Positions 13,655 to 60,312 of a stretch of DNA of 64,000 bases are shown here, piece after piece. The notes beneath the pieces are model-generated. The model was not told where the DNA came from. It did not search any database and saw only the letters and a program-made list of their open reading frames with translations. How positions within the stretch are numbered: position 1 is the stretch's first letter; the number at the start of each line of letters is the position of its first letter. Position numbers and translations under genes: made by a program. The DNA comes from Nanobdellota archaeon (lineage in GTDB: Archaea > Nanobdellota > Nanobdellia > Pacearchaeales > GW2011-AR1). The stretch is from contig JBBSXJ010000004.1 of the NCBI GenBank assembly GCA_038045825.1, positions 182,185 through 246,184 on the forward strand, read 5' to 3'.

Positions 13655-13705
13655 TTAATTAGCATACAAAGGACCTAATTCAAGGCCACCGATCTTTGCT
13701 TTCTT
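13655..13705 (-). repeat. orphan duplicate of the cdc48a 3' end (encodes [16 protein letters not shown])
   Basis: 43/51 nt identical to 16249-16299; all differences are synonymous except S>N. Confidence 0.9.
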
Positions 13706-13721
13706 AATAAGATGCAAAATG

Positions 13722-15863
13722 TTACTTTTTATCTTCTTTGTCTTTATTTGACAAAGGCTTGTTAATTGTTTTTGATACAATTTCTAAAGCAGTGTCAAAA
13801 TCGTGTTTTGTTATCTTTATTGACTCTTTTGTTTTACTAATATGTTGTCTTTTTATTGCTATTATCCCTGCGTTTCTGCATATTAATTCTATATCAGCAC
13901 CTGTGAATCCGTTTGTTTTATTGGCATAATCTTTGATTTGAATGTTCTTTTCAAGAGGCATTTTACTTGCATGGACTTCAAATATTTTCTCTCTTGTTTC
14001 TTTGTCAGGGATTTGAAGCTCGAGGATTGAATCAATTCTACCTGGTCTAAGAAGGGAAGGGTCAATAAGCTCTGGTCTATTTGTAGCTGCAATTACTACA
14101 ACATTTTCTAATTCTTCTATTCCATCCAGTTCTGTCAATAACTGATTTACTACTCTTTCTGTTGCATCTGAAAATGAGTGTCCTCTTATTCCTGAAATTG
14201 AGTCAAATTCATCAAAGAATATAATTGAAGGAGCTACTTGGCGAGCTTTTTTAAAAATTTCTCTTATATGTTTCTCACTTTCACCAACCCATTTACTTAT
14301 TAGTTCAGGCCCCTTTACTGAAATAAAATTAGCATTTGTCTCATTAGCAACTGCCTTCGCTAAAAGTGTTTTACCTGTTCCAGATGGACCTGACAATAAG
14401 ACTCCTTTAGATGGTTTTATTCCAGCTTCTATAAATAATTCTGGATGCAGAAGAGGGAGTTCTACTAATTCTCTTAATTTTTCTTTTTCTTTTGCTAAGC
14501 CTCCAACATCATTCCACCTAACATTTGGTTTTTGAATTAAAACTTCACGCATCGCAGAAGGTTCAACCTGTTTTAGTCCTTCTATAAAATGGTGTCTTGA
14601 AACTTTTATTTTGTCTAGTATTTGAACTGGAACTTTATCTTGTAGATTTTTGAGTTGTGCAAAATAAGGTTTTATAGATTTTAGAGCAGCTTCTTTACAT
14701 AATATTTCAATATCAGCACCTGTAAAGCCTATTGTTTTATTTGCCAATTCGTCAAGATTAATATCTTTGTCAAGGGGCATTCCTCTTGTGTGTATTTTTA
14801 ATATCTCTTTTCTTCCTCTTTCGTCTGGAGAGTTTATTTGTAACTCTCTGTCAAATCTTCCAGGTCTTCTTAAAGCTGAATCTATATCTTCAGGCCTATT
14901 TGTAGCTGCCATTACCACAACTTGTCCTCTTGATTTAAGACCGTCCATTGATGTTAGCAATTGAGCTACTATTCTTTTTTCTGTTTGGTCTGTTCCATCC
15001 CCTCTTTTAGGAGCAATTGAATCTATTTCGTCAATGAAAATAATAGATGGTGCGTTTTTTTCGGCAGATTCAAAAACCTCTCTTAAATGTTTTTCTGACT
15101 CACCGTAATATTTTGACATTATTTCTGGTCCTGCAATTGAAAAGAAAGAAGAGTCTGTTTCATTAGCAACTGCCTTAGCTAAAAGTGTTTTACCTGTTCC
15201 AGGAGGTCCTGTTAATAAGACTCCTTTAGGAGCACCAACGCCCAATTTTTGGAAAACTTCTGGGTGCTTCATTGGAAGTTCTACCATTTCTCTTATCAAT
15301 TCTATTTCATTATGCAACCCGCCAATATCTTCATAAGATATTCCTGTTGCCTTCAAATCTCCTGCGTAAGGTGTGTCTGAAACAATTATCTTCGTTTTTG
15401 AAGTAACTATTGAATATCCTTTAGGGTCCATTCTTGAGACTACATACTCAAGTCTTGTTCCGAATACATCAATTATTGTTTTTTGATTGATTGTTAATGG
15501 CTTATCTAATAATTTTGTATGGAAATATTCTGTTGGGTCGTCACTAAATCTTACTTCTTTTAACGGGGACAGGGTTACTGATTTAGTTGCTTGAACATTT
15601 GTTTTAGATATTGTTATTTCATCCCCTATTGAAGCCCCAATTACTGACCTAGTTGAACCATCTAATCTAATTATATTCTTTTCGTATTCAGAAGAGAGGC
15701 TTCTAAGAACTTTTACAACTGCTCTAGACTTGCCCTTTATTTCCACGATATCTCCTGAAACTATGTCTAATTTATTTAGATTTTCAGAGGAAATTCTAGC
15801 AATTCCTTTATCTATATCTTCCTGCAGAGCCTCTCCTATTTGGAGGGAAATTTTTTCAGTCAT
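13722..15863 (-). CDS. cdc48: CDC48/VAT AAA+ ATPase, second paralogue
   Basis: N-domain plus two AAA modules (GPPGTGKT and [13 protein letters not shown] and FDEFD; RPGR). Confidence 0.96.
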
Positions 15864-16240
15864 TTTTTATTAAATGTTACCTCTAATATACCATTTCTAA
15901 ATGTTTTCTTGAAATCTTTATTCTTTATTCCTTCTGGTATTTTTTCTCTTAAAGTTATTCCTTCTTTATGCTTTTGAGCCATATAATCCTGATTTTGCGA
16001 CTCTTTATTTGTTTTGGCCGTGATTACCATAAAATCATCTTTTAACTTTATTTCAATATCTTCTTCATTATATCCTGGTAGTTCTGTAATGAAATACACG
16101 TTGTTCTTTTCTTCTATAAATTCGGAGCTTTCTTCTTCACTTTCTCTTAATTTTCTTACCGGTCTTCTTCTAATATTATTGCCTCCAAAAAATTGGTTTA
16201 CAATATCTTCGAAAGGGTCATGGTCATCAAAAAAGCTCAT
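15860..16240 (-). CDS. Hsp20/alpha-crystallin small heat-shock protein
   Basis: ELPGYNEEDI and FRNGILEVTF motifs. Confidence 0.9.
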   Translation of the reverse strand: MSFFDDHDPFEDIVNQFFGGNNIRRRPVRKLRESEEESSEFIEEKNNVYFITELPGYNEEDIEIKLKDDFMVITAKTNKESQNQDYMAQKHKEGITLREKIPEGIKNKDFKKTFRNGILEVTFNKK

Positions 16241-16248
16241 TTTTTCTC

Positions 16249-59751: not shown

Positions 59752-59752
59752 T

Positions 59753-60019
59753 ATGGAAATTAATATGACTAAGATGAGTTCTAAGGGACAAGTAGTAATT
59801 CCTCAAGAACTTAGGAAAGACATTAAAGAAGGAGATAAGCTTCTTGTTATTCGCAATGCTGATCAAATAATAATAAAGAAAGCAAGTAAAATGGATAAAC
59901 AGCTTGCAGAAGACCTTGAATTTGCTAAAAGAACAGAAGAAGCTTACAAGAGAATAGAAGCTGGAGAATATATCTCTATAGATTCTGATAAATTAGTAGA
60001 AGAAATGTCTAAATGGTAG
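59753..60019 (+). CDS. AbrB-type antitoxin
   Basis: KMSSKGQVVIPQELR motif. Confidence 0.88.
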   Translation: MEINMTKMSSKGQVVIPQELRKDIKEGDKLLVIRNADQIIIKKASKMDKQLAEDLEFAKRTEEAYKRIEAGEYISIDSDKLVEEMSKW

Positions 60020-60261
60020 AGATCCGCTTTGATAAAAAATTTGTTGCTTTATTTTCTAAATTAAAAGATCCTATAATAAAACATAGGATATCTGTGCAAA
60101 TTAAAAAAACCTCTGAAAATCCAGAAGTGGGAAAACCTATGATGCATACAAGGACTGGGACAAGAGAATTATATGTTAGTTCTTTTAGACTCTCATATGA
60201 GTATTTTAAAAATAAAGAGATAGTTTATATTTTAGATTTGTATCATAAAGATGAACAGTAA
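60013..60261 (+). CDS. RelE/ParE toxin
   Basis: NPEVGKPM...RELYV..FRLSY...YHKDEQ pattern. Confidence 0.88.
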   Translation: MVEIRFDKKFVALFSKLKDPIIKHRISVQIKKTSENPEVGKPMMHTRTGTRELYVSSFRLSYEYFKNKEIVYILDLYHKDEQ

Positions 60262-60301
60262 GAAATAAATTCCATGCAGATGCCGTTAGAACCTAGAACG
60301 T

Positions 60302-60312
60302 GGCAGGGGCAT
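60302..60312 (+). repeat. possible attR: duplicate of the tRNA-Glu 3' end
   Basis: ggcaggggcat is identical to 55551-55561. Confidence 0.5.

Follow-up and report, generated by a model that had tools for sequence, protein, structure and literature searches.

Within a window of 64,000 nucleotides (nt) from the genome of a Nanobdellota archaeon (assembly GCA_038045825.1, contig JBBSXJ010000004.1, positions 182,185 to 246,184), the conserved genes cdc48a and fen1 are each followed by a small cassette of cargo genes, at the far end of which the 3′ end of the conserved gene is found a second time. Such tail-duplicating cassettes are a real and recurrent feature of the lineage, whose structure is well supported and whose mechanism we infer. 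That is, the cargo carries no recombinase gene, the sites are empty in relatives of the same genus, similar arrangements recur at other genes and in other species, and the two copies of the duplicated tails have diverged in the manner of coding sequences. An initial annotation of the window had proposed integrase-free cassettes of this kind at three places, i.e. behind cdc48a, behind fen1 and behind a tRNA-Glu gene, and all three are variable slots beside conserved genes.

All coordinates given here are positions in the window, and the genome holding it is referred to as G000. G000 is a metagenome bin of 836,590 bases (0.84 Mb; 32% G+C; 16 contigs; about 90% complete), and its relatives are Woese-/Pacearchaeota-type DPANN archaea, from groundwater. 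It was compared with the 16 other genomes of its genus (17 genus genomes in all) and, in the wider clade, with 80 fen1-centred loci from different species (852 kb, 1011 genes) and 80 cdc48a-centred loci (874 kb, 1010 genes). In the fen1 set, one of the 80 fen1 genes is cut by a contig end, and for five the sequence available downstream is shorter than 130 nt. Contigs of four public runs from two studies served as independent data, and cargo open reading frames (ORFs) were annotated by Pfam scans.

At the cdc48a site, a stretch of 55 nt is present at 16247-16301 and again at 13653-13707, with 85% identity between the copies. Reading along the minus strand, the order is cdc48a, its tail, hsp20, cdc48b, the tail copy and a 136-amino-acid (aa) gene, followed by a convergent M24 peptidase gene. 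The target gene cdc48a (16249..18615, minus strand) encodes 788 aa with Pfam CDC48_N, CDC48_2 and two AAA domains, and its orthologs are 78-95% identical among the same-genus loci examined. Repeat comparison identifies the proximal repeat (16247..16301, minus strand) as the working 3′ end of cdc48a, including the stop codon. The cargo consists of hsp20 (15860..16240, minus strand; Pfam HSP20, 1.6e-10), which starts 8 nt past the cdc48a stop, and cdc48b (13722..15863, minus strand), which encodes a 713-aa protein with the same Pfam domains as cdc48a and 52.6% identity to it. The distal tail copy (13653..13707, minus strand) lies 14 nt past the cdc48b stop, in the +1 frame relative to cdc48b, and like the proximal copy it ends in a stop codon. 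The M24 peptidase gene (MetAP-like; 12263..13195, plus strand; Pfam Peptidase_M24) is the conserved convergent flank of the site. The 136-aa gene between it and the distal copy (13192..13602, minus strand) is a further insert with weak family matches, for which no tblastn match was found in the 20 relatives' loci searched.

The cdc48a site is empty in G013 and G010, where about 20-27 nt separate the cdc48a stop from the end of the M24 peptidase gene. A full-length cdc48b ortholog is encoded by 3 of the 17 genus genomes (G000, G012 and G014), and the genomes nearest to G000 by cdc48a identity (G011, G007, G010 and G013; 94-95%) lack cdc48b. Compared with the tail of G011, the proximal copy shows one mismatch in its first 30 nt and eight in its last 27, and the last 27 nt of the distal copy show two. 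Furthermore, the stretch made up of the proximal stop and the hsp20 ribosome-site region resembles that of the cassette-bearing G012 and G014. Between the two copies eight codons have changed, six of them synonymously (counting a stop-to-stop change), so that the mostly synonymous divergence described by the initial annotation is borne out at this site.

Contigs of the four runs bridge the distal junction, from the 136-aa gene through the distal copy to cdc48b. In the contigs of all four, the distal copy differs from that in the window by nine substitutions and a 3-nt deletion within 13667-13707. These changes fall within 39 nt, result in three amino-acid replacements and make the copy less similar to G011 (11 mismatches in 57 nt instead of 5), and the final 14 nt and the stop are identical in both versions. 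Over about 1.9 kb elsewhere, the same run contig and the window disagree at 2 positions. The discrepancy is either a recombination patch between strains or an error in the window consensus.

Two other explanations of the distal cdc48a copy were considered and rejected. The copy could have been the docking tail of a frameshifted cdc48b, were it not that the cdc48b orthologs of G012 and G014 finish in a lysine-rich stretch without any such tail; the open +1 frame upstream of the copy is, by our estimate, no longer than chance allows. Similarity kept by protein-level constraint between paralogs was discarded as well, since the copy lies outside cdc48b and relatives do without it.

At the fen1 site, 77 nt at 31409-31485 are repeated at 32274-32350 with 81% identity. 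Both tail repeats claimed for protein genes thus exist, at 55 and 77 nt rather than the 51 and 57 bp first given, and at fen1, as at cdc48a, both copies end at a stop codon. On the plus strand, fen1 is followed after 39 nt by nt190, then by the overlapping sm86, which ends in the tail copy, and then by p185. The target gene fen1 (30468..31484, plus strand; 338 aa; Pfam XPG_N and XPG_I) is present in 40 of 41 related genomes, and repeat comparison places its proximal tail repeat at 31409..31485 and the distal copy at 32274..32350, both on the plus strand. The cargo gene nt190 (31524..32096, plus strand; 190 aa) has no Pfam or NCBIfam match; it is called nucleotidyltransferase-like from language-model features, which place it within 'nucleotidyltransferase family' clusters and near AbiEii-type clusters and should be taken as a lead. 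Its partner sm86 (32089..32349, plus strand) encodes a small protein of 86 aa, whose last 19 or so codons are, by alignment with homologs, the displaced fen1 tail; neither member of the pair has a Pfam match. The gene p185 (32414..32971, plus strand) natively stands next to fen1 on the downstream side: in G013 and G006, where the site is empty, the p185 homolog comes immediately after fen1, and a promoter-like stretch preceding p185 lies after the distal copy in G000 and after the native fen1 stop in G013 and G006. Homologs of p185 are about 30% identical where FEN1 is 87% identical. Within the genus, G001 alone has a related pair behind fen1 (33% and 45% identical), the genomes other than G001, G013 and G006 having unrelated genes, and at least four unrelated cargo types occupy this flank.

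As at cdc48a, the two fen1 copies resemble different relatives. Over 51 nt, made up of the final 33 nt of the proximal copy and the 18 nt beyond it, G000 and the cassette-bearing G001 differ at a single position, even though the cargo proteins are only 33-45% identical to those of G001. The distal copy, in turn, encodes the tail ending found in G011 and G013. Over the last 20 codons, four changes are synonymous and four are replacements, so that the claim of mostly synonymous divergence does not hold for fen1. The whole cassette, from fen1 through p185, is spanned by one 16-kb run contig with 5 differences, and in both the cdc48 and the fen1 repeats the exact words common to the copies are at most 17 nt long.

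The initial annotation had further suggested that docking tails can be grafted onto cargo proteins. This applies to sm86 beside fen1 and not to cdc48b, whose neighbouring tail copy is out of frame and beyond the stop. Most of the 38 homologs of sm86 listed are 62-77 aa long and stop shortly past the conserved core, and a fen1-like tail is present in 2 of the 19 homologs aligned (P0001, which is 98% identical to sm86, and P0030). The graft is in frame on sm86, differently placed in P0030 and decayed in G001. An in-frame tail is not in itself evidence of selection, three frames being available. Among the 15 loci found with the sm86 family, nine have fen1, nt190 and the small gene in a row; in these nine, nt190 is 68-76% identical in eight and about 35% identical in the locus L075, and FEN1 is 66-72% identical. 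The nt190-sm70 pair thus commonly accompanies fen1 in other genera and is not foreign to the clade, and an nt190-like gene stands behind fen1 in 16 of 79 loci. As a separate observation made by eye, a palindrome-like stretch of the AAGACA...TGTCTT type lies just past the fen1 stop in L065/L117, L111, L141 and G004 (L032), and could serve as a terminator or operator or represent a small repeat element.

The tails of fen1 and cdc48a are plausibly PCNA- and proteasome-docking ends, and the initial annotation had given weight to this shared character. However, besides these two, the tails of a ribonucleotide reductase (RNR), a MetAP and an RsmB-like gene have been used at the cases described below, as well as one gene head. 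The common factor is thus position and not function, and the docking nature of the tails looks incidental.

To see how far such repeats stand out in G000, the last 60 nt of each of 966 genes, called by ORF length, were sought within 10 kb, with the first (head), middle and pre-terminal (pre-tail) 60 nt of each gene as controls. Direct downstream tail copies at 44 bits or more were found for 3 of the 966 genes, namely cdc48a, fen1 and a class II RNR on contig C5. The control segments gave one such match for heads, one for middles and none for pre-tails, the head and middle ones being tandem paralogs. The tail repeats are thus not a matter of chance, and the pattern recurs within the same genome at the RNR gene. 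The RNR repeat is about 90 nt long and includes 48 identical nt reaching 9 nt beyond the stop, preceded by 55 nt over which the copies differ at 16 positions; 12 of its 29 tail codons are changed, in 10 cases synonymously. The 5′ part of the proximal copy is nearer to relatives (7-9 mismatches) than that of the distal copy (14-15). The cargo between the copies comprises a retropepsin-like and a DUF5678 gene. Joined to the distal copy are the first 34 or so codons of a radC-like gene, a full radC-like copy being found 2.3 kb further on. Both the RNR and the cdc48 junctions, read by eye, occur at short shared words. A second RNR tail match was found by tblastn in none but G000 among 12 loci, mostly of the same genus. 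Of the four sites in G000, those at cdc48a, fen1 and tRNA-Glu are established as empty in relatives. As an aside, this RNR carries inteins with LAGLIDADG domains.

The third place named by the initial annotation is a tRNA gene (55387..55560, plus strand; Rfam RF00005, 49.3 bits), which was missed by ARAGORN and has an intron of about 104 nt in the anticodon loop; reading the anticodon by eye as CUC makes it a tRNA-Glu. By exact word search, the 11-mer GGCAGGGGCAT stands at its 3′ end (55551..55561, plus strand) and again at 60302..60312 (plus strand), and these are the only two occurrences on both strands of the 836,590-base genome. The similarity between the copies, read by eye, ends with these 11 nt. 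A lone second 11-mer within 10 kb downstream and in direct orientation has, by our estimate, a chance of about 0.6%. The cargo (55689..60261, plus strand; Pfam) comprises an FAD_binding_4 protein, a GDPD protein, a half-length MFS protein, a DUF6962 protein and a pair of MazE-like and ParE-like genes, without an integrase. In G001 the site is empty, the p97 gene lying 97 nt from the tRNA compared with 5.8 kb in G000; other genus genomes have other inserts at this site, and the FAD protein is present in 1 of the 16 other genus genomes. An insertion scar is therefore plausible from the empty site and the uniqueness of the 11-mer, but 11 bases are too few for a homologous route. The same-genus empty sites at all three places support the view that these are real insertions. 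The MFS gene (58065-58607; 180 aa) matches profile positions 2-168 of 347 and is probably truncated, which suggests that the island is decaying. Just beyond the second 11-mer, at 60388-61202, there is an MNT-HEPN pair (NTP_transf_2 and HepT-like); the same pair stands 1.3 kb behind tRNA-Glu in G002 (L049), with 84% identity, and is a further nucleotidyltransferase module in a variable slot.

The pattern also recurs in the wider clade. With a cut-off for a strong copy of at least 40 bits in the fen1-centred loci, 6 of the 80 fen1 genes have a strong direct downstream tail copy, compared with 0 of 931 other genes (Fisher p 2e-7); upstream and inverted matches all stayed below 40 bits in this set. 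Four of these six loci (L086, which is G015, L099, L111 and L141) share the same two-gene cargo, i.e. a 136-138-aa protein and a 197-209-aa nucleotidyltransferase, each flanked by its own species' tail sequence. In L075, fen1 is followed by an MNT and HepT pair, a fen1 tail copy (71-79 nt, 98.6-98.7% identity, with a different ending), a pair of the nt190 type and a third tail remnant. The cargo of L129 and of L108 consists of adjacent small nucleotidyltransferase and HEPN genes (NTP_transf_2/Polbeta and HepT-like). The cdc48a set yielded four further cases. In L234 cdc48a is followed by the same hsp20 and cdc48b cargo, with a decayed tail copy 2.65 kb downstream; in L181 the tail of the M24 peptidase (MetAP) gene is duplicated around a nucleotidyltransferase pair; and in L206 it is the PolB tail that is duplicated. 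In L192 (7884-8020) an RsmB-like methyltransferase gene is followed, after 38 nt and without cargo, by an exact repeat of its last 39 nt, which may be the scar or the precursor of a cassette slot. L108 provides a mirror case at 8451-9546, where a second copy of about 80 nt of promoter and the 13 initial codons of a 481-aa gene stands 1.1 kb upstream of it, the duplicated gene head bracketing the MNT and HepT pair. Further cases in other species of the lineage thus add to the third one in G000.

For 12 repeat pairs, chosen by nucleotide similarity and not by synonymous ratio, the copies were compared codon by codon. Among 212 codons 66 differ, and 40 of these differ synonymously (stop-to-stop changes included), where 18.5% would be expected (binomial p about 5e-14). 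The share is highest in L141 (7 of 7 changed codons) and L086 (4 of 4), and reaches 10 of 12 in RNR. Neutral decay in place does not give such a pattern, and the two copies both have the appearance of gene ends that were once in use. A synonymous excess would be expected of orthologous tails from related lineages, or of a distal copy repeatedly exchanged with insert-free strains. A hybrid pattern, in which one copy joins a native 5′ part to a foreign 3′ part and the other copy the reverse, is compatible with the three G000 cases and L129, although the distal cdc48 copy exists in two versions. Judged from these sequence comparisons, the working cdc48a and fen1 genes would now end in insert-borne sequence, the distal copy probably being the displaced native end.

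The repeats range in length from 26 to about 140 nt across cases, and 7 of the 12 cargoes include a nucleotidyltransferase module of toxin-antitoxin-like type. In agreement with the initial annotation, the Pfam scans of cargo ORFs found a recombinase domain in none of the 12 cargoes and no mobile-element genes in or beside inserts shorter than 20 kb. A tyrosine recombinase acting in trans, which the annotation had proposed to look for, is a possibility that the genome allows: G000 encodes one Xer-like protein (275 aa, contig C3), the only PF00589 match above cut-off. A second, weak match was set aside as topoisomerase IB-like, and in this roughly 90% complete bin no serine recombinase above cut-off and no TnpB-type match was found. 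Between the repeat cores of different genes, shared words reach at most 9 nt, and this speaks against a single site-specific enzyme; an Xer/dif-like site within the repeats was rejected for want of any shared motif.

Taken together, we favour, with intermediate confidence, insertion with long target duplication by general homologous recombination at conserved gene ends, probably via circles. A few genes would be integrated at the very end of a conserved gene, such that the target keeps a complete 3′ end and its displaced native end persists as a copy behind the cargo. The incoming DNA would come from a related cell and contain the end of the orthologous gene together with its neighbours. This piece would close into a circle and integrate by a single crossover within 35-140 nt of shared sequence (pop-in), and recombination between the two copies could later release a circle with one tail copy (pop-out). 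A single crossover with a circular molecule yields just such a duplication, and if it fell inside the repeat it would leave mosaic copies; the route would also account for a near-identical stretch set between diverged parts and for the use of both gene ends. The agent would most likely be the general homologous recombination of the host rather than an enzyme that is encoded by the cassette or site-specific. A second crossover would be prevented by the flank beyond the core gene, which may be too diverged. Only anchors at the extreme 3′ or 5′ end leave an essential gene intact, and this would explain the positions of the cassettes. Addictive cargo, of the nucleotidyltransferase/HEPN toxin-antitoxin-like type, would resist loss and so could help to stabilise the insert. 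Repeated pop-in and pop-out among close kin would also make the copies track the tail of their own lineage, and would let cdc48b diverge in step with cdc48a.

A number of observations weigh against such a route. The hsp20 and cdc48b cargo is present in G012 and G014 without any tail copy, and the distal cdc48 copy of the window, one of the bases of the mosaic argument, is unlike that of all four runs examined. Anchors of about 35-100 nt are short for homologous recombination. The initial annotation had imagined small circles or linear DNA as the vehicle, and of this we recovered no trace: no circle or empty-site junction was seen in the run contigs among the 15 of 52 joints listed, those listed for the four runs being cross-matches between cdc48 paralogs of other organisms, and primer-pair patterns for the empty fen1 site and for a circle or tandem junction gave 0 matches in a metagenome collection from which the population is possibly absent. 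Within the genus, 0 of 437 genes in 370 kb of same-genus loci have a strong tail copy, and local alignment detects a tail copy behind fen1 only in G000 and, weakly, in G001. Between G000 and L234, cdc48b has diverged in step with cdc48a (67.3% and 67.6%), and the similarity among the four shared fen1 cassettes does not exceed that among their FEN1 proteins; there is thus no direct sign of recent long-range transfer. Moreover, a purely general mechanism would not lead one to expect the roughly 30-fold excess of fen1 over other genes. It may reflect the nucleotidyltransferase modules already common beside fen1, or it could point to something specific about the fen1 site.

A broader version of this proposal is tentative. 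Here, core-gene ends would act as recombinase-free attachment sites for a shared pool of cassettes, mostly nucleotidyltransferase/HEPN pairs, that move among related chromosomes by pop-in and pop-out. The fen1 tail would be the main slot and paired copies a two-sided swap slot, and a displaced tail would sometimes be fused in frame, giving a toxin-antitoxin component the PCNA-binding end of FEN1. If so, a fusion of the sm86 type would create a new client or competitor of PCNA.

The same structures could also arise by one-sided capture of linear DNA, i.e. homology-facilitated illegitimate recombination, in which a crossover at the anchor is combined with a microhomology join upstream of the anchor's end, leaving a duplicated tail. 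Such a process has been described for bacteria (PMC3240628). It would account for homology on one side only, with a hypervariable flank (p185 at about 30% beside FEN1 at 87%), and for the short shared words at the right-hand junctions, one of which fuses the radC 5′ fragment to the RNR tail. However, illegitimate joins are reported to remove recipient DNA instead of duplicating it, and linear capture does not by itself explain why the crossover lies inside the duplicated stretch in all three G000 cases. We regard it as rather unlikely.

Similarly improbable, in our view, is a scenario without mobility, in which old resident cargo became bounded by local in-place duplication of the tail, the similarity of the copies was kept by gene conversion or strain exchange, and the 'empty sites' are deletions between repeats. 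The nt190-sm70 pair is indeed the usual neighbour of fen1 (9 of 15 loci, and an nt190-like gene in 16 of 79), the divergence of cdc48b keeps step with that of cdc48a, the two distal cdc48 versions in a near-identical background look like a conversion patch, and the 39-nt repeat of L192, with 38 nt between its copies, has no cargo at all. However, the closest relatives of G000 (G011, G007, G010 and G013) are without both cassettes, which are present in more distant ones, the fen1 flank holds at least four unrelated cargo types in one genus, the synonymous-only differences of L141 and L086 are not expected from decay in place, and part of another gene is joined to the distal RNR copy.

Site-specific integration by a recombinase acting in trans would make the cassettes integrase-less remnants or cis-mobilisable elements and the repeats attL and attR. 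Classic attachment sites include the 3′ ends of tRNA genes (PMC2853133) and of protein genes, fen1 is used far above other genes, the Xer-like tyrosine recombinase encoded elsewhere in G000 could be the enzyme, and the 11-mer at tRNA-Glu would suit a short core. Against this, neither an integrase nor a fragment of one occurs in the 12 cargoes, four fen1 cassettes consist of the same mere two genes, the repeats vary from 26 to about 140 nt with copies that differ at many positions and have no one identical core, no motif is common to the cores of different genes, and each species duplicates its own version of the tail. This mode of origin is distinctly unlikely. Finally, a strain-chimeric contig joined at short shared words is extremely improbable: even if the genome is a metagenome bin of 16 contigs, no run reproduces the distal cdc48 copy of the window, and the 48 identical nt of the RNR repeat could mislead a small-k assembler, the exact shared words of the cdc48 and fen1 repeats are at most 17 nt, independent contigs of four runs from two studies bridge the junctions, and the same architecture is found in unrelated assemblies from other studies.

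The window contains two further features that may be mentioned. A gene at 41053-44136 (minus strand) encodes a 1027-aa HerA/DUF87-type ATPase with intein splicing and Hint domains. In addition, 52-nt stretches at 34410-34461 and 35258-35309, at the starts of adjacent genes for 266- and 269-aa proteins, are 83% identical; the two genes have the appearance of tandem paralogs whose leader regions are alike.

Campbell-type (pop-in/pop-out) integration of circular DNA by a single crossover is used in archaeal genetics. The cassettes described here share with it the duplicated homology on both sides and the lack of a dedicated recombinase, and would share the hybrid repeats and the reversibility, but it is a laboratory tool relying on hundreds of bases of homology, whereas what we propose is a natural, recurrent route working with 35-140 nt. 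The minimal mobile elements of Neisseria are likewise small cassettes without mobility genes in fixed slots beside conserved genes. They are exchanged between strains by homologous recombination with crossovers in two conserved flanks and without target duplication; here, in contrast, there is one conserved flank and a duplicated target end. Integrase-mediated elements at tRNA or protein genes, with their integrase-less derivatives, also target the 3′ end of a gene, restore it and are bounded by direct repeats, but the present repeats are variable in length and diverged, and neither a recombinase (or a remnant of one) nor a common identical core was found.

The closest relatives of our cassettes are the insertions with long target duplication described for restriction-modification systems by Furuta, Abe and Kobayashi in 2010 (PMC2853133). 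According to that paper, which refers in turn to an earlier Helicobacter pylori study, they occur mostly in naturally competent bacteria, with no archaeal case passing the survey filters, some of the repeats overlap gene 3′ ends, and one junction carries a gene fusion; the mechanism was left open, with double-strand breakage by the restriction enzyme as a suggestion. The common features are an insert absent from a related genome, direct repeats of more than 30 bp matching a single-copy target, the lack of transposase or integrase genes, variable repeat length, 'addictive' cargo, repeats at gene 3′ ends and a gene fusion at a junction. The differences are that the hosts are DPANN archaea, that the cargo consists of nucleotidyltransferase/HEPN-type pairs, a chaperone pair and others without restriction systems, that insertion is at the coding 3′ ends of core genes, these being given a replacement end, and that one gene, fen1, is used in about 8% of the species sampled. 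Thus, the cassettes are in structure insertions with long target duplication, and their cargo is outside the set originally described: in G000 it is hsp20 with cdc48b, nt190 with sm86, and the retropepsin-like gene with the DUF5678 gene, none of them a restriction-modification system. The suggested breakage by a restriction enzyme cannot apply to such cargo. The 11-nt repeat at tRNA-Glu falls short of the more than 30 bp of this class. Overall, our cassettes differ from the known class in domain of life, cargo, target choice and the fen1 hotspot, and a search of the literature, leaving aside the supplementary cases of PMC2853133, turned up no account of tail-duplicating cassettes from archaea, whether DPANN or not.

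The genomes of DPANN archaea are tiny, with few mobile elements that can be recognised and with accessory genes that evolve fast. If gene ends are general landing pads, they would offer a simple and testable route of gene gain that needs no integrase. The clustering of variable genes immediately after core genes would then be explained, and toxin-antitoxin cargo would be tied to its own retention. The finding extends long target duplication from bacteria to archaea, to cargo that is unable to cut DNA, which narrows the possible mechanisms, and to displaced functional tails that can land on new proteins. For annotation, it means that short 'extra' gene ends and odd C-terminal extensions beside core genes are to be read as insertion scars.

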